Positions 27,391 to 59,100 of a DNA stretch of 64,000 bases are shown here, piece by piece. Every line of letters starts with the position of its first letter. Position 1 is the stretch's first letter. Below the pieces are notes generated by a model. The model saw only the letters and a list, made by a program, of their open reading frames with translations, did not search any database and was not told where the DNA came from. Origin of the DNA: a virus. The translations under genes were made by a program, and so were the position numbers. The DNA lies in the IMG/VR virus record IMGVR_UViG_3300009183_008543, positions 1 through 64,000 of that record; one strand, given 5' to 3'.

Positions 27391-28656
27391 TTAGAATGTT
27401 TTTTCAACAAGTGCTTGATCCACAACCATTTTTCTTTCAAGATTCGTAATATCAAACATAATATCATTCATAACCGCCTCTACAACAGTGCGTAATCCTC
27501 TTGCACCAGTCTTTTTATCTAAAGCTATCTTTGCCATAGTCTTTATGGCTTCTTCTGTGAATTGAAGGTCTACCTCATCGTAGTAAAACAACTTTTGATA
27601 CTGCCGAAGTAAAGCATTTTTTGGCTCCATCAGAATCCGAATCAGATCATCTTCGTTCATTGGATGAATAGGGGCTTGAACAGGTAATCTTCCTACAAAT
27701 TCTGGTATCATGCCAAATTCAATAATATCTTCATTAGTTATATTATTGATAATATCAATCTCGCTAAATTCTTTCTTATCTAATGAAGAAAATCCAATTT
27801 TACTTTTGCCAAGTCTTCTGGAAACTATATCATTAATTCCAGAAAATGTACCTCCGCAAATGAAAAGTATATTTGTCGTATCCACTCTTAAAAAAGATTG
27901 TTCTGGATGCTTTCTACCTCCTTGTGGCGGAACATTGCAAACACTTCCTTCAATGATTTTAAGCAATGATTGCTGAACGCCTTCACCACTAACATCTCTG
28001 GTTATAGACATATTCTTTGATGTTTTTGCAATTTTATCAATTTCATCTATGTAGATAATTCCAACTTGTGCTTTTTCTATATCGTAATTTGTTTCTCGAA
28101 GTAATTTTACAATTAGGTTTTCGACATCTTCGCCTACATAGCCAGCTTGTGTAAGTACAGTTGCATCACCAATTGCAAAAGGAACTTGTAAAAAATCAGC
28201 CAAACTTTTCGCCAATAAGGTTTTCCCACAACCAGTAGGACCAATCATCATAATGTTCGATTTTTCAATCTCAACATCTTGTAATGATTTTGGTAGTTTT
28301 AATACTCCAGAATAATCATTGATTCTCTTGTAATGATTGCTAACAGCAACGGCTAATTTTTTCTTGGCAGATTCTTGACCAACAACATGCTTGTCCAGAT
28401 GACTCACTACATCTTTTGGATCTATGGTAAATTTTCGAACATTAGTTGGTATTATTGACGACTTTTTTTTGGGAAATTCTTTTGATTGTAAAGAAGAATG
28501 AATCAACCCAACACAATTTGAGCAAATATAACTTTTTGATCCAACTTTTTTCCCATTTCTAATTTTAGATAAGGGAGAACTCTCCAACAATGTTGATCCA
28601 TTTGCTGCTGTTTTTTCACAAAACTCACACCAGAAACTATTCTTAATTTTTGACAT
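27391..28656 (-). CDS. clpX: ATP-dependent Clp protease ATP-binding subunit ClpX
   Basis: C4 Zn finger, GPTGCGKT, GYVGEDVE, DEIDK, RDVSGEGVQQ, GGRKHP, IGF loop, TGARGLR; AAGGAG before ATG 28656. Confidence 0.97.
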   Translation of the reverse strand: MSKIKNSFWCEFCEKTAANGSTLLESSPLSKIRNGKKVGSKSYICSNCVGLIHSSLQSKEFPKKKSSIIPTNVRKFTIDPKDVVSHLDKHVVGQESAKKKLAVAVSNHYKRINDYSGVLKLPKSLQDVEIEKSNIMMIGPTGCGKTLLAKSLADFLQVPFAIGDATVLTQAGYVGEDVENLIVKLLRETNYDIEKAQVGIIYIDEIDKIAKTSKNMSITRDVSGEGVQQSLLKIIEGSVCNVPPQGGRKHPEQSFLRVDTTNILFICGGTFSGINDIVSRRLGKSKIGFSSLDKKEFSEIDIINNITNEDIIEFGMIPEFVGRLPVQAPIHPMNEDDLIRILMEPKNALLRQYQKLFYYDEVDLQFTEEAIKTMAKIALDKKTGARGLRTVVEAVMNDIMFDITNLERKMVVDQALVEKTF

Positions 28657-28715
28657 TTTGCACTCCTTGTAATGTCGCTGAAACAATTTAACACAAGATG
28701 TGCAATAAAACAATA

Positions 28716-29853: not shown

Positions 29854-30333
29854 TTATGCACAGAATTTCATAGTTCCATCAACCTTTTCCTGTCGCAATA
29901 CCTTATTACGAACATGAATATTTAAAGATTGATATACATTATTGGCAAAATTCTTTGCACTGCTCTTATATCCATGCTTAAGTGCAAGATCAGCAACTTC
30001 AGCATAGGTCAAAGGATGTTTTGATTCACTAACAATTTTTTGAACTAATGCTGGCAAACTACTTGGTTTGTCAATAGAAGAACTAGAAGCTATTACATCC
30101 TTTACACGACTAGGCTTTCGTTTTGTTGAATTCTTTTTTGCTGTGGATTTGCTTCGATTCGAATAATTCTTTTCTGGTTTAGCCACAGTCTCTTCAACAT
30201 CAATACCTTTAAATAACATATTGATTTTCTGTTCATATGGAAGAATAGCTTCCATTTTTTCAATCAAATCACCAAGCATCTTGTGCTGGTTCTTGTAAGC
30301 ATTTAGCTTTTCTTGCAAAATATTAGAACTCAT
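29854..30333 (-). CDS. Coiled coil + basic linker + winged-helix (HARE-HTH-like) nucleoid-type protein
   Basis: SLPALVQKIV...PLTYAEVADLALKHGYKSSAKNFANNVYQSL; GGAG before ATG 30333. Confidence 0.65.
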   Translation of the reverse strand: MSSNILQEKLNAYKNQHKMLGDLIEKMEAILPYEQKINMLFKGIDVEETVAKPEKNYSNRSKSTAKKNSTKRKPSRVKDVIASSSSIDKPSSLPALVQKIVSESKHPLTYAEVADLALKHGYKSSAKNFANNVYQSLNIHVRNKVLRQEKVDGTMKFCA

Positions 30334-30399
30334 GACCACAATCTCCAAATGTCATTTGTTTTTTGTATTTGTAGGATTAATGACCAAATCCATACAAAT
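30331..30399 (-). promoter_or_regulatory. Structured 5' leader (hairpin with possible pseudoknot)
   Basis: Stem ATTTGTA(T)GGATT/AATCC-TACAAAT; loop GTCATT is complementary to downstream AATGAC. Confidence 0.5.
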
Positions 30400-30418
30400 C
30401 TATAATAACCACAGTTTA

Positions 30419-30446
30419 ATCTTAACACTTTAGATAAGATCGTAAA
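30419..30446 (-). promoter_or_regulatory. Putative early promoter TTTACG-N16-TAAGAT
   Basis: Shares layout with 24119-24146. Confidence 0.4.
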
Positions 30447-30530
30447 GTTAAAGTGATAAATTTTTTTCAAAATATATAAAAATACAATATACACACTAAA
30501 TTATAAGTACTGACTAACAAAGGAATTAAA

Positions 30531-30713
30531 ATGCTAGTACTATCAAGAAAAAAAGATGAAAAAATTATTTTAAAGCATCCAGATATGCCAGACATTAAAA
30601 TCACTATAGTAAGAATTGATAATAGAAATAAAGTTAGAATAGGTATTGAAGCAGACAAAGAGATCACTGTTATTCGTAGCGAACTTGAAGTCACTACATG
30701 TAACAACGATTAG
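30531..30713 (+). CDS. csrA: Carbon storage regulator CsrA/RsmA homolog 1
   Basis: MLVLSRKKDEKI...KVRIGIEA..EITVIRSEL. Confidence 0.92.
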   Translation: MLVLSRKKDEKIILKHPDMPDIKITIVRIDNRNKVRIGIEADKEITVIRSELEVTTCNND

Positions 30714-30990
30714 GAACCTTGGTTTCACGAAGATATACAATAAATTCATCGTGATTTAAACTGTCAATATTTATCTTTTGGTCAATAATTAAAGATTCTT
30801 GATCTGATAATTTTAATTTATTTTTTATCTGTTCAAATGTATAGTTCTTTTTTCTGACTATCCAAGCTGCTGCTAGTAACCTCGACTGTGCAGATGAATC
30901 GAAAAGCACATTACAATAAGTACAAATACATATTCCATCTTGAAGAGGTTTAGGTAACGAGTTACCACAATTCGGACAGGCATATATCAT
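30694..30990 (-). CDS. Zn-ribbon + HTH-like hypothetical protein
   Basis: CPNCG...CTYC; start after the terminator and CATAAATA (30996-31003). Confidence 0.6.
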   Translation of the reverse strand: MIYACPNCGNSLPKPLQDGICICTYCNVLFDSSAQSRLLAAAWIVRKKNYTFEQIKNKLKLSDQESLIIDQKINIDSLNHDEFIVYLRETKVPNRCYM

Positions 30991-31012
30991 TACCATATTT
31001 ATGCATATCAAT

Positions 31013-31044
31013 AAAAAAACCCCACCATATAGTGGGGTTTTTTT
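31013..31044. terminator. Rho-independent terminator (bidirectional) after the ParB-like gene
   Basis: AAAAAAACCCCAC-CATATA-GTGGGGTTTTTTT. Confidence 0.85.
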
Positions 31045-31055
31045 ATTTTGACACT

Positions 31056-32285
31056 TTAACTGGGAAAACACTTCTTCAAAATCTTAGAACAATCTTCATC
31101 TCCGTCATGAATTCCCTTGATAATCTTGACAATTGTCTTTAAAACATCTGTTTTTTCAATCTTTTCTGGTAATGAAAACATTGGCTCTGATTCAAGACAA
31201 GCACAATCATTTCTTTGCACCCTTGTCAAATAATCAAGATAATTATTCTTGATTTTATTTTGAGTCAAAGATTTTGGCTTCGAAACTTCAGAACTTCTAT
31301 TTGAATTGCCAGAAGATTTAATTGCAGCGACCACATCTTTGCCCTTGGTTGATTTGCGATTCTCTTTCTGACGAGTAACAGCATCAGCAACTTTGGCACT
31401 AGCTTTTTCAAAAGTGTGTTCTGCTTCAAAAATTTCTTCATCACTACCTTGAACAGTAGCAACTTTTACTTCTACCAAAGCAATTTCTTTTTCCCGATTC
31501 GCCCTTTCAATCCTTCTTTCATCACGCTCGCTACGAACCTTATTCTTTTCTTCGCTTATGGCATTAGCTTTTTCACGAATTTCACTTCTTTCTTCAACAC
31601 TATCAATGCTAGACAACTTAATGGCAGCAAGAAGATTGATCCTTCCTTCAAACAAATCATTTAAAGTTGCGGGATCAAGTTTCTTTACAAGTTCTTCGGT
31701 ATCTTTCAACCAAGACTTATTCTTTTGAAGAATAGCAAGGATTTTGTCATCTGGAGCTTTATACTTTCGCAATTCCATCAACAAGGCAATATCATGACCT
31801 TCGTTGAAGTTTTTGCGACAAGCGTTTTCGCTATAACTGTAAGACAAAGCCTCAAAATCATCTTCGGTACGATAAATTTGACATGGAATAGAAGCGTAAA
31901 CTTGACTTGCCTGTTTCCAAGCATATTCCTTATTGCCTTTTTTATCTTCAATGATTTGAGAACAATCTTTCACAACAATATTGTTTTCCATCAAATAGGA
32001 TACAGCCCTATATCTTCTTTCGCCACCAACGAGTTGGATCTTGCCTTCTTCTTGCATCCACCTGCAAATTATAGGAACCATCAACCCTTTATCTTTAATA
32101 TCTTCACGAAGAACTTCTGATAGTTCACTATCAATCAAATCGTTTTGACCCTGCTCGGTATATCTTCGAGGATTCTCGAATCCATATTTACCAGAGTTAC
32201 TATCATTCTCGGCAATTTCAATCAGATCAAAAGGAACAAGATACAGAGTTCCATGAAGATGCTTAATGCTGTCTGGAAGATTCAT
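31056..32285 (-). CDS. ParB/Srx N-terminal domain protein with HTH and coiled coil
   Basis: NPR, KGLMVPI, LVGGERRYRAV, ENACRKNF; AAGGAG before ATG 32285. Confidence 0.8.
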   Translation of the reverse strand: MNLPDSIKHLHGTLYLVPFDLIEIAENDSNSGKYGFENPRRYTEQGQNDLIDSELSEVLREDIKDKGLMVPIICRWMQEEGKIQLVGGERRYRAVSYLMENNIVVKDCSQIIEDKKGNKEYAWKQASQVYASIPCQIYRTEDDFEALSYSYSENACRKNFNEGHDIALLMELRKYKAPDDKILAILQKNKSWLKDTEELVKKLDPATLNDLFEGRINLLAAIKLSSIDSVEERSEIREKANAISEEKNKVRSERDERRIERANREKEIALVEVKVATVQGSDEEIFEAEHTFEKASAKVADAVTRQKENRKSTKGKDVVAAIKSSGNSNRSSEVSKPKSLTQNKIKNNYLDYLTRVQRNDCACLESEPMFSLPEKIEKTDVLKTIVKIIKGIHDGDEDCSKILKKCFPS

Positions 32286-32292
32286 ACTGACA

Positions 32293-32321
32293 CTCCTTCG
32301 CATAATGGGATTGACATCCGT
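32293..32321 (-). promoter_or_regulatory. Putative paired CsrA-binding sites in the ParB-like leader
   Basis: ACGGAUGU (32314-32321) plus SD AAGGAG (32293-32298). Confidence 0.45.
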
Positions 32322-32368
32322 TTCAAAAAACCACTCAAATTACCTACAACGGCAAATTGATCTGAGCT

Positions 32369-32397
32369 AGAATATTCTCATTTGCCAAAGTTGTCAA
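32369..32397 (-). promoter_or_regulatory. Sigma-70 promoter for the ParB-like gene
   Basis: TTGACA-N17-TATTCT. Confidence 0.7.
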
Positions 32398-32474
32398 TAC
32401 CAACAATCTTTTTATTTTAAAATTTAAATTTTTGACAATTAATGAATTTTATGTGAGTCGTATAGATCTAACAA

Positions 32475-33419
32475 TCACTTTTTTTTGTGAGAAGAAATCT
32501 CAGAAACCCAAAATGAAAGATCTAGCTTTTCCCATTTGAAATTTGACCATGCATCTACATATGACCGCAATTTTATTGATAAATCGTGACTATTAAGCTT
32601 AGAAAACGCATTCCAATCATCAACTTCCCAAACAGGAAGACCATCATAAATTCCATTTATTGGGAGCTTCTGTATCACAGGTATTCTACCAAGTGACAAA
32701 ACCTCCCAAACTCTGTGGGTATCGTATCCTTCCCCGGCAGGGCAAATTACGAAAGCGGAAGATTTCATCGATAGCCAAAAATTACATCTACTGGAAAGTG
32801 ACAACCATTTTATCCATTTTACCTCACGCAAAGATTCGTATATTGGAATACGAATACTCGCTCGCCTCTTTGGTGTGTTCATAGCCAAATGAAAATTAGC
32901 TAAAACAGGAATAGCATCACAATTTGATATTGGTAAAATATTATTACGCAGTTCGATCAGTTCTCTCTCCTGATCCTCCGCAGTCATGCCTTTGTTGCCC
33001 CAAGGATGATCAGAAACAGATCTAAATAAAGTGTGGTAGTCAATTCCTATTGGTATAGAACCAAACTTAAATCCAAGGCAATTATTCTGTGTATAGACTG
33101 CCAGAACCTTGTCACTATCCAGCAGTCTCTGAATTGTCTCATCTGAATAGTCATATGGCATAATCTTATCATCACCATTAACTACTATCACCATAGGATT
33201 GGAAAATCTATCAAGTAGTTTTGAAAATCTGGCTACCTCATTGCCATGTACAAATACAGTATTTCCATAGAGATTATCGGCTTTCCAACCGTGTGTGACA
33301 TCATTATTTTTATATTTTGGAGGTTGATCACAGGAAAGTGCTATGCCAATGGAACTGACGATGGAGCATAGATGTTCTGTATGTTTTAAACCCACCGCCT
33401 CTTGATTATTCCGTAGCAT
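32475..33419 (-). CDS. Exostosin (GT47)-like glycosyltransferase
   Basis: SIPIGIDYH, FVICPAGEGYDTHRVWEVLSLGRIPV, YDGLPV..VDDW. Confidence 0.75.
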   Translation of the reverse strand: MLRNNQEAVGLKHTEHLCSIVSSIGIALSCDQPPKYKNNDVTHGWKADNLYGNTVFVHGNEVARFSKLLDRFSNPMVIVVNGDDKIMPYDYSDETIQRLLDSDKVLAVYTQNNCLGFKFGSIPIGIDYHTLFRSVSDHPWGNKGMTAEDQERELIELRNNILPISNCDAIPVLANFHLAMNTPKRRASIRIPIYESLREVKWIKWLSLSSRCNFWLSMKSSAFVICPAGEGYDTHRVWEVLSLGRIPVIQKLPINGIYDGLPVWEVDDWNAFSKLNSHDLSIKLRSYVDAWSNFKWEKLDLSFWVSEISSHKKK

Positions 33420-33432
33420 TATGTGTCCATAA

Positions 33433-33630
33433 TCACATTTTATTTGATTTATATAAATTATTTATAGCTTTTGTAATTGCATTTTCCTTTGTAGAAAAAA
33501 CAATTGCTCCACAAAAACCACAAATTAAATTCAAATCATCATCAAAAGAAAAGCTTTTGTCTCTAAGATGCTTACAGCAACTAGGACAACTTTTTTCTTT
33601 TGGTATGTGATTTTCCAGAAATGATGTCAT
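33433..33630 (-). CDS. Small Zn-ribbon protein
   Basis: CPSC...CGFC; overlaps the 3' end of csrA-2. Confidence 0.5.
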   Translation of the reverse strand: MTSFLENHIPKEKSCPSCCKHLRDKSFSFDDDLNLICGFCGAIVFSTKENAITKAINNLYKSNKM

Positions 33631-33775
33631 CTTGTATTTCTTTCCTAAATACAGGTATATCAGTAGGAGCATCAATGCCAAGTCTAACCTTTCCATTGGC
33701 TGCTTCAACTAAAGTTACGATGATATTATTATTGATTACTATACTTTGATTTACTTTTCTAGATAAAATAAGCAT
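33581..33775 (-). CDS. csrA: Carbon storage regulator CsrA/RsmA homolog 2
   Basis: MLILSRKVNQSIVINNNIIVTLVE....KVRLGIDAPTDIPVFRKEI. Confidence 0.95.
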   Translation of the reverse strand: MLILSRKVNQSIVINNNIIVTLVEAANGKVRLGIDAPTDIPVFRKEIQDDIISGKSHTKRKKLS

Positions 33776-33816
33776 GGTTTGTCCGTCCTTGAAAACCTTT
33801 TTTATAACTCATTACA

Positions 33817-33845
33817 ATCATAACCATACAAACGAAAAAAGGCAA
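33817..33845 (-). promoter_or_regulatory. Sigma-70 promoter for csrA-2, overlapping the upstream terminator
   Basis: TTGCCT-N17-TATGAT. Confidence 0.55.
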
Positions 33846-33868
33846 CAGCATAATGCTGTTGCCTTTTT
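33835..33868. terminator. Rho-independent terminator
   Basis: AAAAAGGCAACAGCA-TAA-TGCTGTTGCCTTTTT. Confidence 0.85.
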
Positions 33869-33884
33869 ATTTATGTTAATTAAA

Positions 33885-34043
33885 TTAGAAGAGTCTTTGA
33901 TTACATACAGTAACAGCAGCAACATAAGCTCCCCTCATGGCGCTACAAAGAACATTCAATTTAGGGCAACTTGGGTAAAAGTATCTCCAAGTAGCTACAG
34001 TATAAGTCGCTTGACCTTGATATTCGCCTGTTTTACAACGCAT
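33885..34043 (-). CDS. 52-aa Cys-containing small protein not in the ORF track
   Basis: MRCKTGEYQGQATYTVATWRYFYPSCPKLNVLCSAMRGAYVAAVTVCNQRLF*; GGAGG RBS; terminator immediately downstream. Confidence 0.75.
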   Translation of the reverse strand: MRCKTGEYQGQATYTVATWRYFYPSCPKLNVLCSAMRGAYVAAVTVCNQRLF

Positions 34044-47123: not shown

Positions 47124-50100
47124 TCACACATAAAATTGGGATTGTGGTTCGGGTCGAAGAGACGATATATCAATAATATTCGTGTCGAGACTAATATTTC
47201 TATCAAGTATTCTGCAAACAAAGTCATTGGCATCCCAATAAGTTCCCTTAAATATATTTAACTCATCATAATAACTGAATGTGTCTACATTAATTTTAAG
47301 ATCATTTGTAACATACTCTGGTCTAAAGTGAAAGTCAAATGTAAAATCTATTCCAAAACTTGTAAATTTATTGCATAAATCTTCTGATGGAAATAAAACA
47401 AAAAGTCTAGCATCTGTATTACTTCCTGTTTGCAAATTGATTCTTTTTGCATAAAGACCAAATTTCCACATAGATGATGATAAAACATCTTCTCCGTATT
47501 GAGATATACAAGACCAGTCAAAATTAATATGCCAAAGTTCCTGAGCATTAGAATTATCACTTCCTATGCCACGAAGATGCAATGAATATTGCCAACTATT
47601 TGTAATAGTATTATAAAACAACTGTAAAGATTCTGGTATCTTAAGATTATTTCGTAATAAAAAGTCTTGCAATATATTTGCACTGCCTAGATTGGTTCTC
47701 ATGTACAATGTTTCTGGTATCGCATCACAATTGCCACATGTGGTTGTTATGTTTTGCGTAATAGCAGCCAAATCTGTCACAAAATCTTCAGCATAAGCAA
47801 TTTCTAAAAAATCAATCTCAGTAATAACCCCCATGGATATATCATCGACATTTAATGGCGAATCATAAGTTCCAGACAAATAAATTGATCCACTACCATC
47901 AAATGCATAACCCGGAACAACATATTCCGAGTCTCCTCCCAAAGATATTGGCGATAATAAAGATGTATACCAAAAATCTCCAGCTATAGAATCTCTTGTA
48001 GATGCTGCATCTCCCAAAGTAATAGGAACCGAATCATCTACTGGAATTTCAAAAGATGCAATTCCAATGTCAATTGAACCATCCAAAATTATGGTTCCAC
48101 TTCCCTCATAAGATTGATATGGAGAAATTGCTTTCGCTGAACCACCAATTGAAACTGTACCCAAAGATTCAAATATGTAAATATTTCTTGAATATATAGA
48201 ATTTCCATAAACATACATTAATCCATCTACATATGGTTTAATCGGATAATCAGCACTTCCGTAAACCACAACTCCTGCATAAGATGGATATATATATCCT
48301 AATCCAGTAGACGCAAAACTCAATTTAAATTCGACCAATGACTCATTTGAAGTTGTAATACCACCAGAAGTATTATACTTATAATAAGGACTTACTGGTA
48401 TGGATTCGCCTTCTAAGGTTATAGATCCTGATGATTCGTAGTTGTAGTTTGATAGTGATATCAAAGCAGAATCATCTATATAAACATTTCCATCTCCCAC
48501 ATAAATATAAAATGCACATAAAACTTCAGAAGATCCAGAGGTTGAAATATTTCCGCTAGAAATATATTTTCTTTCTAAATTTGCTTGAGAATTTATTGTT
48601 ATTCCGCCAGATGCCTCGTAATACGACAATTCAATAATTCCAGTTTTTATGCCCATAGAAACTACTGTTGTTGCAACAATAGTGAATGGTATGCATTCTG
48701 GTATTTTTGAAAATGGAACTGAGACGAATTCATTGCTTGAAGGTACTGGCAGTCCATTTATTGCAATTCCTGTTGAACCTATGGCGACAAAAGAATTAAC
48801 AGGATGAATTGATCTTTGAATGTCTGCTATTGGCCAAGTCCAATTGACATCAGTTAAAAACTGGCAAACTTCTCCTAAATCTCTAGCAACAATCTCTTGA
48901 AACATTCTGTTCAAACCATTTGGTATTGCACAAAATGGAATATTATCACAATTGTAGTACTCAACACCAACAACCCTAAATGTTCTTAGTGGTAATTCTC
49001 CAACATTAAAATTAAATGTTTGACTAAATTCAAATTGTTTATAAATATCAAAATTAAAATCAAAATTAAAAAAAACAGAAACGGTTGGATTAGTATAAGC
49101 CACATAACTTAAAGATATCTTCCCATTTCCAACAAAATTAATACTTGAATTACAAATAGCATTTCCAGATATTAAAATTTCTCCAGAACCAACAAGTGGT
49201 ATTAGTGTGGTGAGAGAAATTTCTTCGCCAATAGACTCTGGAGATCCGTGAGAAATTGGTCTAAAATAATATTTTACTCCTGAAATCAAATTGGAAATAG
49301 TCACTCTATGTTCAAAAACCAAATTGCTATCTTCTACTGTCGAATATGCATATCCATAAGTAGGACTTTCACCTAAACCTGAGCGAGAAACAGTATCGTA
49401 AACAACACGACTAGTCGAAGGAGTATTCGTAATCCAAGATATTGTTATCAAAGTAGTCGTTGAAGTAGCTTTTGAAATAGCTGAGACTGCACTTATTACT
49501 GGAGGCTCTTTTGGACTTATGGAGCTTTCATAGCTCAGAATAACTCCTCCATCAGCAATGACGCTAAGATTTAAATTAACAATAGCTGTTCCAAATATTA
49601 TAATATTTTCAGAATCAGAAATAAAAGTCAAAGCATATTCGAATAAACTATTTGCGTCATTTGTGCCACTTGGAGTTGTAACCAACACACTTGCAGAACC
49701 AAGAACATTAGAATCTGTGATCGCAATGATAGTATTCGAGTCCACGACTGTAAATTCGATAACAGCAATGCCACCAATTGTGACTTCTGTAGTTCCCGTA
49801 AAATTTTCTCCAGTAATCGTAATCGAAGTTCCGCCAGATATAGAGCCATTAGACGGATAAACGCTGGTTACTGTAGGTGGCACTTCAATGTATTCGAATA
49901 AGCTATTTGCGTCATTTGTACCACTTGGCGTTGCGACCAACACACTTGAAGAACCAAGAACATTGGCACCTGTGATAGCAGTGATAGTAGTCGAATCCAC
50001 GACTGTAAACTCGGTAACAGCAATGCCACCAATTGTAACTTCTGTAGTTCCAGTAAAATTTTCTCCAGTAATTTCAATTGAAGTTCCACCCAATGTTGAT

Positions 50101-53100
50101 CCGCCAGAGGGAGAAACGCTGACTACTGTAGGTGGCACTTCAACATATTCGAACAAACTATTTGCATCATTTGTACCACTTGGCACTATAACTAACACGC
50201 TAGAAGTTCCAGCAACATTAACATCTGTGGTTGCAGTGATGGTGGTCGGATTAACTACTGTGAACTCAGTAACAGCAATGCCACCAATTGTAACTTCTGT
50301 AGTTCCCGTAAAATTTTCACCAGTAATCGTAATGAAAGTTCCGCCCAATGTTGATCCACTAGATGGAGAGACGCTGGCTACTGTGGGAGCATTTTCAATG
50401 TATTCGAACAAAATATTTGCGTCATTTGTACCACCTAGCGTTGTAACTAACACACTTGCGGGACCAGCAATATTAACATCTGTGGTTGCAGTTATAGTGG
50501 TCGAGTCAACAACTGTAAACTCAATAACGGCAACACCGCCAATTGTAACTGATATCACATCAGCAAAATAAGTTCCAGTAATCGTAATTAAAGCACCACC
50601 TGATGTAAATCCACTAGATGGAGAAACGCTTGCTACTGTTGGAGAAGTTTCAATATATTCGAAAAAACTATTCGCATCATTTGTGCCACTTGGCGTTGTA
50701 ACCAACACACTTGAAGAACCAGCGACATTGGCATCTGTGGTTGCAGTTATAGTGGTTGAGTCAACGACTGTAAACTCAATAACGGCAACGCCACCAATTG
50801 TAACTGATATCACATCAGCAAAATAAGTTCCAGTAATCGTAATCGAAGTTCCGCCTAATATAGAACCACTAGACGGAGACACGCTCGACACTGTCGGAGT
50901 AGTTTCGACATATTCGAACAAACTATTTGCTTCATTTGTGCCACTTGGAGTTGTGACCAACACACTTGCGGAACCAACAACATTGGCACTTGTGGTCGCA
51001 ACAATGGCTGTAGAATTCACGACTGTAAATTCGGCAACAGCAACGCCACCAATTGTGACTTCTGTCGCATCAGTAAAATAAGTTCCAATAATTGCAATCG
51101 AAGTTCCGCCTAATGTTGATCCACTAGACGGAGACACGCTTGACACTGTCGGAGTAGTAACAACATATTCGAACAAACTATTTGCTTCATTTGTGCCACT
51201 TGGAGTTGTGACCAACACACTTGCGGAACCAGCAACATTGACATCTGTGGTAGCAGTAATGGTGGTCGAGTCAACAACTGTAAATTCAGTGACGGCAACG
51301 CCACCAATTGTGACTGCTGTCGCATCGGTAAAATAAGTTCCAGTAATCGTAATAGAAGTTCCACCCAATGTCGATCCACTAGAAGGAGACACGCTTGAAA
51401 CTACGGGCAGTACTAAAACATATTCGAACAAGCTATTTGCATCATTTGTACCGCTTGGAGTTGTGACCAACACACTTGCGGAACCAGCAACATTGACATC
51501 TGTGGTTGCAGTTATAGTAGTCGAGTCAACAACTGTAAATTCAGTGACGGCAACGCCACCAATTGTAACTGCTGTCGCATCGGTAAAATAAGTTCCAGTA
51601 ATCGTAATCGAAGTTCCACCTAATGTCGATCCACTAGACGGAGACACACTTGCTATTTCTGAAATAGGTAATGTATAAAGGAAAATAGTTGTTTCGTCAT
51701 TTGTACCGCTTGGAGTTGTGACCAACACACTTGCGGAACCAGCAACATTGGCATCTGTGGTTGCAGTTATAGTAGTCGAGTCAACAACTGTAAATTCAGT
51801 GACGGCAACGCCACCAATTGTGACTGCTGTCGCATCGGTAAAATAAGTTCCAGTAATCGTAATTGAAGTTCCGCCTAATGTTGATCCACTAGACGGAGAA
51901 ACGCTTGATACTGTAGGAGCAGTTTCGATATATTCGAACAAACTATTTGCATCATTTGTACCGCTTGGAGTTGTGACCAACACACTTGCGGAACCAACAA
52001 CATTGACATCTGTGGTTGCAGTTATAGTGTTCGAGTCAACGACTGTAAATTCAGTGACTGCAATACCACCAATTGTAACTTCTGTAGTTCCCGTGAAATT
52101 TTCTCCAGTAATCGTAATCGAAGTTCCTCCCAATGTCGATCCACTAGAAGGAGAGACGCTTGATACTGTAGGAGAAGTTTCAATATATTCGAACAAGCTA
52201 TTTGCGTCATTTGTACCGCTTGGAGTTGTGACCAACACACTTGCGGAACCAACAACATTAGCATCTGTGGTTGCGTTAATGGTAGTCGAGTTCACGACTG
52301 TAAATTCAGTAACCGCAATACCACCAATTGTAACTTCTGTAGTTCCCGTGAAATTAGTTCCAGTAATCGTAATAAAAGTTCCGCCTAATGTAGATCCTCT
52401 ATATGGAGAAACACTGGCTACTGTAGGTGGAACAACAGAATAGGTAAACAAACTATTTGCACTATTTGTGCCACTTGGAGTTGTGATCAACACACTTACA
52501 ATTCCAGCAGATCTAGCAGATATGATTGCTGTTATGGTGGTTGAGTTTACGACAGTAAAAATAGAAACTGGAGAGCCACCGATTGTAACTGCTGTTGCTC
52601 CAGTGAAATTTGCTCCAGTAATCGTAATGGAAGTTCCGCCCAATGTTGATCCGCTAGAAGGAGAGACGCTTGATACTGTGGGAGCAGGAGCCACATAAGT
52701 GAACCAGTGATTTATGTTTCCATCACTTGTTCCTCCTCCAGTTGTAACCAACACACTTGCAAGACCAGCAACATTTGCCGGGGTAATTGCGGTAATAAAG
52801 GTTGGACCAATAACGGTAAGTCCTATTCTGCAAAAAGATGTCAGAAAGTTCTTGCTTGGACCTATTTGCCCTCTGGCTAAAAAAGAAAAAGAAATTAAAT
52901 CGTTGACATTCACCATTAAAGAGTCAGAAGCTTGTACATTGGCAGAAGCGCCGACATATACTCCGTTGACTTGAACCGAAGCTAAAATGGCGTTAGTATG
53001 ATCCCCATATGGCCAAGATATGCTGATATATAAATGTCCAGCCTTGACAACTTTTAGCGTTGCCCTTAATGATACTGGACTAGAGGTTGGGTAATCAGTT

Positions 53101-56100
53101 CCAAGAAAAAAATCACTATCTACTTCATACAAAAAAGCAGGATTACTAGAATAGACAGTCTCAAAAGGCATTATGACTTTGGTCGAGTTCACAACGGTAA
53201 AACCAGTGGCGGCAATGCCACCAATGGTAACTGCTGTTGTTCCCGTTAAATTAGTTCCATTGATCGTAATGAAAGTTCCACCCAATGTTGATCCGCTGGA
53301 TGGAGAAATGCTGTTTATGGAAGGGGGAGGAGCCACATAAGTGAACAAACTGTTTGCACTATTTGTGCCTCCTGCTGTTGTGACCAACACGCTCGCAGTT
53401 CCAGCAGTTCTGGAACCTATTTTGGCGTTTATGGTGGTCGAATTGACAACTGTAAAGGTAATGACCGAAACGCCACCAATGGTTACTGCTGTCGCTCCCG
53501 TTAAATTAGTCCCAGTAATCGCAATCGAAGTTCCGCCCGATATGGAACCACTAGATGGAGAAACGCTTGCTACTGTGGGAGCAGGAACCACATAAGTGAA
53601 CAAGCTGTTTGCACCATTACCACCTCCATCTGTTATGATCAATACGCTTGCAGTTCCAGCAGATCTAGCAGATGTGGTTGCCGTTATGGTGGTTGAGTCA
53701 ACAACGATAAAACTGGCGACTGAAAATCCTCCGATTGAAACTGCTTTCACCCCCGTGAAATTTACTCCAGTAATCGTAATCGAAGTTCCACCCAATGTTG
53801 ATCCGCTAGAAGGAGAAACACTTGATACTGTGGGAGCAGGAACAATATAAGCGAATAAGATATTTGCGTTACTTGCACCTCCAACTGTTGTGACCAATAC
53901 ACTTGCTGTTTCGGCAGTTCCAGAAGATCTAGAAGATATTGTTGCCGTTATGGTGGTTGAGTTCACAACAATGAAACTGGCAACGGCAACTCCTCCAACT
54001 GTGACTGATATCACATCGGCAAAATAAGTTCCAGTAATCGCAATTAAAGTTCCTCCGAATGTTGATCCGCCAGATGGGAAAACTCTGGTTACTACAGGAG
54101 CAGGAACGATATATTCGAACAAGCTATTTGGACTATTTGTGCCACTCGGAGTAGCTACTAGCAGACTTGCATAGCCAGCAACATTGGCTGCTATAGTAGC
54201 GGTGATGGTCGTTGAGTTCACAACGGTAAAACTAGTAACAGAGATGTCGCCAATGGCAACTGCTGTCGCTCCCGTGAAATTTGCTCCAGCAATCGTAACC
54301 GAAGTTCCTCCGAATGTTGATCCGCTAGACGGAGAAACGCTTGCTACTGTAGGAGCAGGAATATAAGTAAACAAACTGTTTGTGTCATTTGTGCCACTTG
54401 GCGTTGTGACCAGAACACTTGCAGTTCCAGCAACATTAGCAGCTATGATGGCGGTGATAATAGTCGAGTTTACAACGGTAAAACTAGTGACAGAGATGCC
54501 ACCAATGGTAACTGCTGTCGCTCCTGTAAAATCTGTTCCGGTAATCGTAATTGAAATTCCGCCTGATGTGAAACCAGTAGATGGAGAGATGCCGACTACA
54601 GTAGGTGGCACTACGGCATAAGTAAACAAGCTAGTTCCAGTATTTGTGCCACCCGCTGTTGTGACCAATACACTTACAATACCAGCAGATCTAGCGGACG
54701 CAATTGCGGTGATAGTAGTTGAATTCACAACGGTAAAACTACTAGCTAAAACTCCACCGATTATAATTGCTGTCGCTCCTGTGAAATTTGCTCCAGTAAT
54801 CGTAATCGAAGTTCCGCCCAATGTTGATCCACTAGACGGAGAAATACTTGCTACTGTGGGAGTAGGAATCACATAAGTCAATAGGCTGTTCGCACCATTT
54901 GTTCCACTTGGTGTTGTGACCAAGACGCTTACAGTTCCAGCAGATCTGGCGGATGTGATTGCCGTTATGGTAGTTGAGTTCACAACAATAACGCTAGTGG
55001 CTAAAACTTCACCGATTGCAACTGCTGTTGTTCCCGTGAAATTCGTTCCAGTAATCGTGATCGAAGTTCCTCCGAATGTAGAAGCGTTAGACGGAGAAAC
55101 GCCGGCTACTGTAGGTGAAACAACAGAATAAGTAAACAAACTATTTGCACTATTTGTGCCACTTGGAGTTGTGATCAACACACTTACGATTCCAGCAGAT
55201 CTAGCGGATATGATTGCTGTTATAGTGGTTGAGTTTACGACAGTAAAACTAGCGACAGAAACGCTTCCAATCGTAACTGCTGTTGCTCCAGTGAAGCTAG
55301 TTCCAGTAATCGTAATGGAAGTTCCGCCCAATGTCGATCCACCAGATGGAGAAATGCTGGCTACTGTAGGAGCAGGAACGGCATAAGTGAAAAAACTGTT
55401 TGTACCATTTGTTCCACTCGGAGTCGTGATCAAAACACTTGCAGTTCCAGCAGATCTAGCGGATGTGGTTGCCGTTATGGTGGTCGAATTCACAACGGTA
55501 AAACTAGTAACAGAGATGCCACCAATCACAACCCCTGTTGCTCCAGTGAAATTAGCTCCAGTAATCGTAATAGAAGTTCCGCCAAATGTTGATCCACTAG
55601 ATGGAGAAATGCTGGCTACTGTAGGTGGTATTACAACATAAGTAAATAAGCTGTTTGCATGACTTATCCCACCCGCTGTTGTAACCATTACACTTGAAGC
55701 ACCAACAGGTCCAGCTGGTACGATTGCCGTTATGCTGGTTGAGTTAACAACGATAAAACTAGCGACTGGAAATCCTCCAATTGTTACCGCTGTAGCTCCC
55801 GTGAAATTTACTCCAATAATTGCAATGGAAGTTCCACCCAATGTTGATCCACTAGATGGAGAAAAACTAGATATTATAGGTGGAACTACAATATAAGTAA
55901 ACAAGCTATTTGCACCATTTCTACCACTAGGTGTTGTCACCAAAACACTTGAAATTCCAGCAAATCTAGCTCCTATGTTGGCGGTTATGGTGTTCGAGTT
56001 CACAACCGTAAATCCAGTGGCGGCTACGCCACCGATTGTTACCGCTGTCGCTCCTATAAAACTGGTTCCTGTAATCGTAATGGAAGTTCCACCCAATGTT

Positions 56101-59100
56101 GATCCACTGGATGGAGAAACGCCAGATACTGTAGGTGGTATTGCGACATAAGTGAACAGGTTGGTCACTGTAGGTGACCCAGATCCAAGAATGTTATAAA
56201 CTATTACATTTACATTTCCAAAAGATCTAGCTGCCGTGACTGCTGTGATGGTGGTGGAATTCACAACAGTAAAACTAGTGACTTGAACACCACCAATTCT
56301 CACATCTGTTACTCCAATTAGGTCGGTTCCAGTAATCGTAATGAAAGTTCCACCTAGTGTTGATCCACTAGACGGAGAAACGCTGGTTACTGTAGGTATC
56401 ATGATGGCGTAAGCAAACAAGTTGTTTGGATTATTCATGCCACTAGGCGTTAAGACAAGAACACTTGCAGTACCAACGGGATATAAATCTCCTCCATATC
56501 CTGCTCTGGTAGCGGTGATGGCTGTGATGGTGGTCGAATTTACAACAATAAAGCTAGCAACTGAAATTCCAATCGTAACTGCTGTTGCTCCAGTAAAGTT
56601 AGATCCAGTAATCGTAATGGAAGTGCCTCCCAATACGAAACCGCTAGATGGAGAAACGCTGGTTACGGTAGGAGGAATTGCAGCATAAGTAAATAATGTT
56701 GCTCCGGTATTAGTGCCACTAGGAGTCGTAATATATATACTTGCGTTTCCAGCATACCTAGGAGCTATAGTGGCTGTGATGGTAGTTAAGCTTATGACAG
56801 TAAAACTAGTTACCGAAACTCCACCAACAGTAACCGCTGTCGCTCCAATAAAATCAGTTCCAGTAATCGTAATGACAGTTCCACCTAATGTTGATCCACT
56901 CACTGGTAAAAAATTAGTTATAGATGGAGGAATTGCAACATAAGTAAACAAGCTGTTTGCATTATTTGTGCCACTTGCCGTTGTGACTAATATACTTGCG
57001 GCTCCAGCAGATCCAGCAGATGTTGTTGCCGTTATAGTGGTTGAGTTCACAACGGTAAAACTAGTGACTGGAACGCCACCAACAGTAACTGCCGTAGTTC
57101 CCGTAAAATTAGCTCCGTTAATTGCAATTAAAGTTCCACCTAATTTTGATCCACTAGATGGAAAAACGATGTATGGTGTTGGTGAGGAAACAGTCAAATC
57201 GTATACTGCCAAAGAACTTGTGTATTTAGTTGGATTTAATTTCGTATTTAAAACAGAAACATAAACATTTGCACCGTCTGGTGAAACAAAAATATTTTCA
57301 GGATTTTCATACGATGAAACATTTTGCTGAACTGTATTGATTTTAGTCAACGAACCATTTGAAACATTTCTGTTTAAAATTATAATTTTTCTGTACCCAG
57401 ATAGATTCACTCCAACATAAAAATTCTTTCCATTAGGAGAAATGCAAACAGAAGTGCAAGAACCAGAACCGGCAGGAGATGTCAAATTCAAATCGAATGT
57501 TGTACTGACAGTCAACCAGCTACCACCAGTGGTTTCTGAAATACAATCGAATATTGAAATCTTATCGTTATTGTTTACATAAACAAATCTGCTATCTGAA
57601 GAAATTGCGACATCGTTGATTATATTTCCAATCTGTGGTAGATCTCGCCTAATCCCGAAACTAATAGTTCCAGCTGGTTGCAACTGCGAAACTTGATCTT
57701 GAATGATACCTAAAGCCGAAATTGAACCTCCTCCACTGATGTAAATACGCAAACCATCAGGAGAAGCATAAACTCCATTGATTCCACTTCCATAATTGTT
57801 TCTTTTTTGACCACCATAATACTTAAGGCTGAATGCATTGGAAAATAACAAATCTCGGTTCATGCTGAAATTGCCAATCAAAACACCTGTGATGGAATCC
57901 CTCTTGAACATGGCGATTGAAACATAATTAGCAGGATCATCAAGGTTGTTGGGAGCCGTTGTTTCGCCTCCTTGACCATTGCAAGCCACATAAACATATT
58001 TTCCGTTAGGCGTTATGCAAATCGCAGCAGGATTGATATTAGCCCAAGGGCTTTTTATTCCGGTAGAAATCCTAGATGTTCCTTCGATCAATAATCCCGT
58101 CAAAGCATCTCTGTAAAACATAGAAATCTTATCTCGATGCAAAACATACAAATTTTTCCCATCTGGAGATGCACATATATCGACAGGTAGCGAACCAACA
58201 GATGTGTTTGAATCCAAACTAAACAAACCAGTACTAAAATTTTTAGAATAAATAGATATTTTACTGTCAAAATTGCTGTTAAAAGTAAGTGCGTAAATAT
58301 TCATTCCATCTGGAGAAATACAACTTTTTAAGCCACTAAAATCGTTTGCGACTATTTGTTTTTGTGACAGCCATGGTTTTGATTCAGATTCAAAGTAAGT
58401 TAAATTTTTATCGATAGTTATATTTGTATTTTGGGATGTAACAGAAATCGCAGCATTTCCGAGAGTTTTTGGAGGCACTAGAACAGCAATGATTTTTGAG
58501 TCAATACCGTAAAATGTAGTGGCTGTTATACCTCCAACGGCAACAGCGGTTACTCCAGAAAAATTAGGACCAGTAATATAAACCAATTCATTGCCCAATG
58601 TGGAAACACCAGATGGGTAAATGTCAACAGACGCAAGTGCGTTTGCCTCATATTGAAAAATATTGATATTATTTGTGACATTTGTTCCATTGGGCGTTGT
58701 CACCAAAACTATTGCAGGTCCAGCAACATTGACTGGTACAATTGCGGTTATAGTGATCGAATTGACAACTTTAAAGCCAGTATCAGCAATGCCTCCAATT
58801 GTCACTGCTGTCGCTCCAGTGAAATAAGCACCAGTAATCGTAATAGAAGTTCCGCCCAATGTCGATCCGCTAGACGGAAAAACGCTAGTTATCTGAGGTA
58901 AAGGAGAAAGTGTCGATTCTCCATTTCCTCTATTGAACATTGAAATCGTTTTTTCGCCATTACTGATGGAATAAAGACTGTCTCCTGCAGCGTTTATGAC
59001 ATAAACGCTGTTTCCGTCTGACGAAATAATGATATCTACTGGATAGATCCCAGTAGGAATATCTATTGATTTCCCAAAAGAACCTGTTTGTGGATTTACG

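Follow-up and report, generated by a model that had tools for sequence, protein, structure and literature searches.

CsrA is among the best-studied global translational regulators of bacteria. Several CsrA paralogs with partly distinct roles may be found in a single bacterial genome or integrative and conjugative element, such as RsmA, RsmE, RsmI, and others in Pseudomonas or CsrA, CsrR, and CsrT in Legionella, and, as Abbott et al. are said to have reported in 2015, one CsrA paralog can be targeted directly by another. CsrA homologs are also encoded on phages and plasmids and have been proposed to manipulate host translation (PMC7366521 and PMC8450108). The same setting applies to the two csrA genes described in this work, which were found in the first 64 kb (referred to as the window) of the 136,406-base IMG/VR virus record IMGVR_UViG_3300009183_008543, a fragment of a very large (huge) phage, as follows from the fact that a 136-kb record was rated by CheckV as merely 28% complete. 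In contrast to the bacterial and integrative-element systems, both paralogs lie here within one phage gene block, in convergent orientation, and are separated by 2 to 9 kb. The interpretation that we favor, with little better than even confidence, is that this block encodes two non-redundant RNA-binding proteins of the CsrA family, the canonical csrA-2 and the phage-specific csrA-1, that would regulate translation during infection.

According to the survey by Sobrero and Valverde (2020; PMC7366521), csrA is present in 30 of 2517 phages, and Campa et al. (2021; PMC8450108), who surveyed GenBank and IMG/VR, described the phage CsrAs as “highly similar” to the bacterial ones; RsmQ is a plasmid-borne CsrA/RsmA homolog (PMC9928087). 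Single CsrA copies on phages, which the sequence-only reading of the window had taken as known, and on plasmids have been on record since 2020-2021. Our literature search detected neither paired phage CsrA genes, conserved or otherwise, nor a CsrA of any huge phage, with the limit that the supplements to PMC8450108 and PMC7366521 may list multicopy phages. Whereas the published phage CsrAs, as presented there, are single genes, the present locus contributes a pair that is conserved among huge phages and includes a representative of a divergent, phage-restricted subfamily. The pair does not amount to a novel kind of system, and the CsrA functions discussed below are predictions made from sequence.

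Both genes were found where the sequence-only reading had placed them, csrA-1 (60 amino acids [aa]) at 30531-30713 on the plus strand and csrA-2 (64 aa) at 33581-33775 on the minus strand, flanking, as it had also stated, a gene that encodes a ParB-like protein with a ParB_N domain (31056-32303). The products of both match the Pfam CsrA family (PF02599) far above its cut-off of 27 bits (57.8 bits, E = 1e-15, for csrA-1 and 72.8 bits, E = 2.1e-20, for csrA-2), and both match phrog_9500, the “CsrA-like regulator” (E = 7.2e-9 and 6.2e-18, respectively). Like CsrA, RsmA, and RsmE, both retain the strand-1 motif MLxLSRK and the essential Arg residue, although, unlike them, both are phage-borne. In a six-frame search of the entire 136-kb record, PF02599 matched csrA-1 and csrA-2 only. 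As judged by its sequence, csrA-2 is a canonical CsrA: its residues 1 to 57 align without gaps to RsmE (2jpp; E = 1.4e-9) and to Escherichia coli CsrA (1y00; E = 4.6e-8), an alignment that spans the helix region of the solved CsrA/RsmE structures with their five strands and a helix, and its R44 aligns to R44 in both. The C terminus of csrA-2, ...SGKSHTKRKKLS, is indeed a basic tail, as had been noticed, and this tail, in a further departure from CsrA, RsmA, and RsmE, overlaps another open reading frame (ORF), that of the zinc-ribbon protein ZnR2 described below.

The csrA-1 protein is a divergent, phage-specific member of the family. Together with the csrA-1-type proteins of related phages, it forms a subfamily designated T1 (csrA-2-type proteins are designated T2), which is distinguished by a 4- to 5-residue insertion after strand 2 and by the absence of a predicted C-terminal helix, while the essential arginine is retained. 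In the PF02599 alignment, residues 1 to 52 of csrA-1 occupy profile positions 1 to 47, and a T1 profile built from 24 relatives matches RsmE (2jpp) at E = 1.2e-8, with 4 extra residues after strand 2 and 1 extra residue in the β3-β4 turn. In the alignment of these 24 sequences, residues M1, L2, V3, L4, S5, R6, K7, R49, and E51 are invariant, and R49 aligns with the Arg of the RsmE “VHREE” motif and with R44 of E. coli CsrA, which was called essential for RNA binding in PMC7366521; the residue before this key Arg is Leu or Ile in T1 instead of His. In the AlphaFold2 monomer model of csrA-1 (pLDDT 76), strands are formed by residues 10 to 16, 19 to 28, and 35 to 41, strands 1 and 5 are not formed in this monomer, and there is no helix, in agreement with the earlier statement that csrA-1 lacks the usual C-terminal one. 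The loop insertion that had been assigned to csrA-1 is thus real as an insertion, being evident from both the Pfam alignment and the comparison of the T1 profile with RsmE, but hardly as a loop, since the model suggests a lengthened β2-β3 hairpin (strands 10-16 and 19-28). A Foldseek search with the T1 model returned CsrA, RsmA, and RsmE chains as the best matches, with probabilities of 0.85 to 0.92 and E values of 0.14 to 0.3 that are insignificant for so small a protein.

Among the characterized proteins, T1 also resembles RsmN/RsmF of Pseudomonas aeruginosa (4kji and 4k59), a CsrA-family paralog that likewise has additional residues between its strands 2 and 3, differs in where the helix lies, and accompanies a canonical paralog; the T1 profile matches both structures at E values of approximately 1e-6. 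The RsmN/F insert forms a helix. It is also long, with 64 chain residues falling onto 53 profile positions, approximately 11 more than in the T1 profile, whereas the insert of T1 comprises 4 to 5 residues and is predicted as a strand, so that T1 lacks the long helical insert that marks the RsmN/F subfamily. Long inserts that recall the RsmN/F architecture were observed at the same β2-β3 site in locus L067 of record G047 (∼35 residues beyond the 4 to 5 of T1) and in locus L054 of G042 (∼15 residues more than in canonical CsrAs), and this site seems to be an insertion hot spot in phage CsrAs (here and below, G-numbers denote the records of relatives and L-numbers denote loci).

In many T1 proteins, the C terminus is extended by a conserved tail, R-A-P-I-G-Q-I-S-A-E-T-A or a variant of it (G005-G008, G013, G015, G018-G023, and G042; loci L010-L028 and L054), that is missing from csrA-1 of the window and from the T1 proteins of G001 and G002. 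One idea is that this tail could serve as a degradation tag, given the presence of a phage ClpX gene in the same block.

The T1 subfamily appears to be confined to phages. A search of 185,579 species genomes (one per species) with the T1 profile yielded a single true T1, the 13.7-kb contig that encodes it being a syntenic phage fragment in its own right; the next-best matches were chromosomal CsrAs of Planctomycetota, which are 50 to 58% identical and lack the insert but have the V[IL]R[SG]EL motif. The T1-bearing contig was binned with a Neisseriaceae metagenome-assembled genome, but it is short and phage-like and was rejected as evidence for a Neisseriaceae host. Among 1.84 billion representative proteins, the profile had 23,765 matches with E values of 1e-3 or below, including 550 of 1e-10 or below; the strict V[RK]IDNxNK signature is found in 23 of the 150 best matches, and in 87 of them the insert at the same site is at least 4 residues long. 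The best 150 also include natural tandem CsrA-CsrA fusions (P0029, P0032, P0034, P0045, P0053, P0055, and P0062), some of them with three matched stretches, and a crude pattern picked out 12 such tandem look-alikes; these proteins would be single-chain pseudodimers.

This distribution could also be viewed as that of an antagonist or decoy of the Csr system, with T1 titrating the sponge RNAs of the host, poisoning the host or phage CsrA through mixed dimers, or binding a protein through its hairpin. The restriction of T1 to phages would be consistent with such a role, as would its altered surface (the longer β2-β3 hairpin, the replacement of the His preceding the key Arg by Leu/Ile, and the missing helix) and its extreme conservation relative to the neighboring proteins, which is what could be expected of a protein aimed at a conserved target. 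However, T1 keeps all the conserved residues of strands 1 and 5 of canonical CsrAs, which argues for the usual mode of RNA binding, and the V[IL]R[SG]EL motif is not phage specific, since the chromosomal CsrAs of Planctomycetota share it without having the insertion. An antagonist function is therefore considered distinctly unlikely, and T1 is treated here as a putative RNA-binding protein.

The window belongs to a clade of freshwater huge phages whose near-complete records are ∼0.37 to 0.6 Mb in size, and the pair of csrA genes recurs within this clade. A scan of IMG/VR with csrA-1 detected 63 loci, many of them on contigs of 100 to 530 kb, and the 50,697 GenBank phage records contain one T1 match, in the 595-kb genome LR756511.1; csrA-2 yielded only 2 loci in a scan of IMG/VR for close relatives and none in GenBank phages. 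For 49 of the 65 loci, the complete record was then compared with PF02599. A strict T1 was found in 35 of the records searched, including the present one and LR756511.1, and 21 of these 35 encode at least one further CsrA. In 19 records, again including the present one, this second CsrA is located 2.2 to 8.5 kb from T1, on the opposite strand and in the same syntenic block, so the pairing is no isolated case. The claim of two distinct paralogs in a phage is supported, the two being different in architecture and encoded in separate, opposite-strand units. Several of these records are near duplicates (G002-4, G013/15/16, G018/22, G019-21, and G033/34), so the number of independent lineages is smaller than the number of records. 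In a tree of 75 distinct CsrA sequences, T1 proteins lie on one side of a branch with a support of 72, and none of 500 label shuffles was equally clustered (one canonical row from G033 carried the T1 label in this tree; the true T1 set comprises 28 rows). The T1 and T2 proteins of the window each group with those of G001 and G002, and the two genes have therefore been inherited together.

Such coinheritance and close linkage in 19 records would be consistent with the suggested heterodimeric timer, in which csrA-1 and csrA-2 would form mixed dimers whose ratio shifts in the course of infection and thereby switches the translation of phage genes. The core hydrophobic positions are alike in the T1 and canonical alignments, the tandem protein P0055, in which a canonical domain is fused to a domain with an insertion, makes mixed pairing geometrically plausible, and heterodimerization of CsrA is regarded in PMC7366521 as “plausible,” if undemonstrated. 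Nevertheless, T1 is the sole CsrA in G010 (100% complete), G011 (98% complete), and the 595-kb LR756511.1, and csrA-2 is absent from the syntenic site, with the flanking genes present, in G018-G022 and G028; the occurrence of T1 alone in near-complete genomes makes an obligate heterodimer unlikely. In addition, T2 evolves much faster than T1, which is a poor fit with a coevolving interface, and the location of the genes in separate units on opposite strands suggests separate control. Given these facts, a heterodimeric timer appears very unlikely, and the tie to leaderless late genes that had been postulated along with it found no support.

Conservation also bears on whether the csrA genes have any function at all. 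In all 27 loci compared (27/27), T1 ranks first in conservation among the proteins of the block, ahead even of the phage's own ClpX. The nonsynonymous divergence (dN) is 0.09 to 0.17 for T1 and 0.19 to 0.54 for T2; synonymous divergence (dS) is saturated in 9 of 10 comparisons and equals 1.8 in the tenth, and because of this saturation dN/dS could not be computed. In a variant strain from another lake run, csrA-1 has 9 differences, 7 of which are at third codon positions and the other two cause the R28K and I45V replacements. The view that one or both genes are functionless passengers of host origin draws on the scarcity of close relatives of csrA-2 (2 viral loci and 0 of 50,697 GenBank phage records) and on its loss in several lineages. 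Both ORFs, however, are intact and conserved across relatives whose neighboring proteins are just 25 to 60% identical, the low dN stands against a saturated dS, and synteny and strand are maintained, all as under purifying selection; the passenger view is accordingly highly improbable. The conservation of T1 beyond that of ClpX suggests that the phage has a posttranscriptional program of its own and not merely a borrowed host gene.

If both genes are indeed functional, csrA-1 and csrA-2 would each act as a homodimer that binds GGA motifs located within or close to Shine-Dalgarno sequences. This binding would repress or tune the translation of phage and/or host mRNAs in the course of infection. 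What the sequences show is the family membership, conservation, synteny, and purifying selection of the two genes and the arrangement of genes and units; RNA binding, dimer state, targets, and any timing are inferred. The best candidates for targets are the leaders of the csrA genes themselves, through auto- or cross-regulation. The csrA-2 leader, AAGGACGGACAAACC (33776-33790, minus strand), contains two GGA one base apart and includes the AAGGACGGAC segment (33790-33781), which is present directly before the csrA-2 ATG, as the sequence-only reading stated; such a GGAnGGA arrangement was found elsewhere only in the nearest relative, G001. The csrA-1 leader lies in the intergenic region between csrA-1 and a divergently transcribed HTH-like gene (30349-30530), and every one of the 24 distinct T1 leaders compared has a Shine-Dalgarno GGA. 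A second GGA is found 8 to 30 nucleotides (nt) upstream of this one in 16 of the 24 distinct T1 leaders and in 54 of 222 background ORFs, a contrast that is no more than suggestive because the sequences are related and not independent, and the background includes spurious ORFs. By ortholog group, a second upstream GGA occurs in 15 of 29 csrA1, 16 of 32 csrA2, 6 of 19 ParB, 6 of 18 ClpX, and 3 of 13 HTH-like leaders, compared with 25 of 107 for the other module genes pooled. These leader sequences make auto- or cross-regulation the best-supported, if only suggestive, idea of a target. Since only the csrA leaders are enriched in dual GGA, the neighboring genes, among which the targets had been sought, are not marked as such.

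The other leaders that had been singled out for their ANGGA sites fared no better. The sequence at ∼30340 reads TTGGAG, and although the ParB leader has two GGA, 23 nt apart, GGA in leaders is the rule throughout the genome (1.01 per 51 nt versus 0.58 expected; at least one in 121 of 168 leaders of crude gene calls), so these sites are ordinary Shine-Dalgarno sequences and not a special signal. The leaders of two CsrA genes in other phages are richer in GGA: in the 90 nt before the start, there are 13 GGA in L069 (G048), mostly as a GGAcGG-type repeat, and 8 in L044 (G039). Such leaders may be sponge-like or strongly autoregulated.

Several further observations weigh against the interpretation of the pair as translational regulators. 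The archetypal fold includes a helix that is missing from the csrA-1 model, so RNA binding by csrA-1 could be altered or lost, and a search of PDB with the single csrA-1 sequence gave no match at E ≤ 1e-3. The csrA-1 leader of the window contains a single GGA (AAAGGA, 30519-30524, 6 nt before the ATG), and the two GGA of the csrA-2 leader are too close to each other for one dimer to bridge. A search of the window against Rfam gave 0 hits and thus no Csr/Rsm small RNA such as CsrB or RsmZ, and the 150-nt windows richest in GGA across the 136-kb record, ∼95% of which is coding, look coding-like by eye. Finally, contigs from one lake metatranscriptome library that are at least 99% identical to the window cover all of csrA-1 (30518-30936) and most of csrA-2 plus its start (33616-33788), a weak hint that neither gene is silent, but these contigs are no proof of transcription, since DNA may be present in such libraries, and they show neither strand nor level. 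By the same token, the gaps between such contigs within the block (32396-33480 and others) are no evidence of silence.

The layout of transcription units sets the two genes further apart. The csrA-1 gene is the only plus-strand gene inside a long minus-strand block and is transcribed alone, on the strand opposite to csrA-2. Upstream of csrA-2, the preceding unit is closed by a strong intrinsic terminator with a 15-pair stem and a T run (33836-33868, minus strand), and csrA-2 therefore needs a promoter of its own; a stretch of 60 nt separates the terminator from the csrA-2 leader. The sigma-70 promoter that had been assigned to this stretch, TTGCCT-17-TATGAT (33817-33845, minus strand), did not hold up: it matches at 9 of 12 positions, overlaps the terminator stem, and belongs to a class of sites found no more often than by chance (30 versus 29.2 expected from shuffled sequences). 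Better promoter-like sites are present at the same position in G009 (TTGACA-17-TACAAT), G001, and G012, and T-rich terminator-like sequences are found upstream of csrA-2 in G001, G002, G009, and G012, so that, judging from these sequences, csrA-2 likely has its own promoter of unproven class. The best promoter-like site of the region, TTGACA-17-TATTCT (32369-32397, minus strand; 10 of 12 positions), lies upstream of the ParB-like gene and also belongs to a match class that is not above chance.

Upstream of the T1 genes, at approximately −35 to −70 (30460-30500 in the window), an AAAATTT box followed by a variable spacer and an ACTnACTTAAT-like sequence can be seen by eye. As a promoter class, this combination was dropped, as the loose pattern is not enriched in the genome (22 occurrences versus 20.9 in shuffled sequences).

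The 3′ end of csrA-2 overlaps the gene for ZnR2 (33433-33630, minus strand), a 65-aa zinc-ribbon protein with invariant C15, P16, C18, C37, and C40 whose ATG is located 50 nt inside csrA-2. The conservation of its sequence indicates that ZnR2 is a real gene, and an overlap of 14 to 50 nt with csrA-2, retained in G000, G001-G005, G007, G008, and G023, has led us to propose, from the gene arrangement, that the translation of the two is linked. This arrangement recalls the FliW-CsrA partner switch (5dmb), in which a CsrA gene is tightly coupled to a small partner gene, and it could mean that csrA-2 works as a unit with ZnR2, a partner or antagonist acting by a logic similar to that of FliW or CesT, and, in most relatives, with an additional HExxH protein. 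This protein of ∼215 to 235 aa, characterized by an HEMxH motif and, at the C terminus, a CxC...CxxC ribbon (e.g., L015:13651-14352, minus strand), takes over the overlap with csrA-2 from ZnR2 in G009, G012, G013/15, and G042 and follows ZnR2 in G007 and G008. Unlike FliW, ZnR2 is a zinc ribbon without a known family, its Pfam matches being generic, sub-threshold zinc-ribbon ones, and FliW itself (PF02623) was not matched in the 136-kb record, a 28% fragment, while the control genomes were. Moreover, G010 retains ZnR2 and the HExxH protein without csrA-2, and the HExxH protein remains without csrA-2 in G018-G022 and G028; since both persist in its absence, the link is not strict and may reflect an operon neighborhood only. 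A functional unit of csrA-2 with these proteins is, on this evidence, decidedly doubtful, and csrA-2 would more likely act as a CsrA in its own right.

In place of the HExxH protein gene, which is found in most relatives and is absent from the 136-kb record and from G001-G004, the window contains a gene for a GT47/RXYLT1-like glycosyltransferase (32475-33419, minus strand; sub-threshold Pfam matches) 13 nt downstream of ZnR2. The HExxH protein matches phrog_6361, a family of unknown function, and nothing else; it has no Pfam match at E ≤ 0.001, for which reason the name “SprT-like,” once considered for it, was abandoned.

A broader scheme would make T1 a hallmark, phage-invented CsrA lineage of freshwater phages of 0.4 to 0.6 Mb that, together with a canonical CsrA, runs a two-component translational program, with sequential or mixed dimers, autoregulation through pairs of GGA in the leaders, and zinc-ribbon proteins as modulators. 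This scheme as a whole is speculative and rather unlikely, but, if true, it would give the phage control over the translation of its own Shine-Dalgarno-led mRNAs without dependence on the Csr system of the host. In any case, with just 60 and 64 residues, csrA-1 and csrA-2 provide a compact natural system for the question of mixed dimers among CsrA paralogs and are well suited for asking how small changes, such as a longer hairpin or the loss of a helix, alter the choice of RNA.

The order of genes in the block is common to the relatives: ClpX (−), GT (−), p105 (−), HTH-like (−), csrA1 (+), ZnR1 (−), ParB (−), a variable segment, ZnR2 (−), csrA2 (−), GT2 (−), p191 (−), and methyltransferase (+), where the signs indicate the strand. 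The ClpX-like AAA+ ATPase with an N-terminal zinc-binding part (27391-28713, minus strand) is 50 to 64% identical in all syntenic relatives. The 164-aa HTH-like protein (29854-30348, minus strand), encoded divergently from csrA-1, has a weak match to DUF7648 and is syntenic in the relatives; translation probably begins at the ATG at 30333, which follows the TTGGAG mentioned above. The ParB_N-domain gene (minus strand; Pfam ParB_N, E = 4.1e-8), which is supported by synteny, probably starts at 32285, behind AAGGAG, and a scan of viral contigs with its product yielded no relative. The ParB unit ends with the gene for ZnR1 (30694-30990, minus strand), a 98-aa protein that combines a four-Cys zinc ribbon (invariant C5, P6, C8, C23, and C26) with a four-helix domain and is convergent with csrA-1, the 3′ ends of the two genes overlapping by 20 nt. 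Its AlphaFold2 model (pLDDT 86.6) retrieved no significant match from PDB, the weak ones being HTH DNA-binding domains, and an Atlas search with ZnR1 gave weak leads only. ZnR1, too, has only generic zinc-ribbon matches below the threshold in Pfam, and PHROGs contained nothing similar to ZnR1, ZnR2, the HTH-like protein, or p105. The comparison of ZnR1 with ZnR2 gave a pairwise E of 0.032 and, at the profile-profile level, a probability of 77% for an alignment of 34 zinc-ribbon columns, and a common origin of the two is no more than a possibility.

Just upstream of the terminator that precedes csrA-2, a small ORF behind a GGAGG Shine-Dalgarno sequence encodes a 52-aa four-Cys protein (33885-34043, minus strand). 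It is kept just upstream of csrA-2 in G001-G004, G007, G009, G012, G023, and G027 and is also present, without csrA-2, in G018, G022, and G028. In G014, G024, G029, and G030, the four-Cys sequence makes up the C terminus of a larger repeat protein whose gene lies upstream of T1 on the same strand, directly so in G024, G029, and G030 and ∼1 kb away in G014.

DNA nearly identical to that of the window was matched by 20 rows belonging to 12 studies of freshwater and lake metagenomes, one of which may be the source. A DNA search with the block gave no match among GenBank phages; no tRNAs were found within the 64-kb window. The G+C content of the stretch is ∼30 to 33%. A 4,319-aa ORF (47124-60083, minus strand) with 30 IPT/TIG repeats and a β-propeller (Lactonase-like) N-terminal part sits in a stretch of 42 to 44% G+C, compared with ∼30% elsewhere, and is probably a giant surface or fiber protein.

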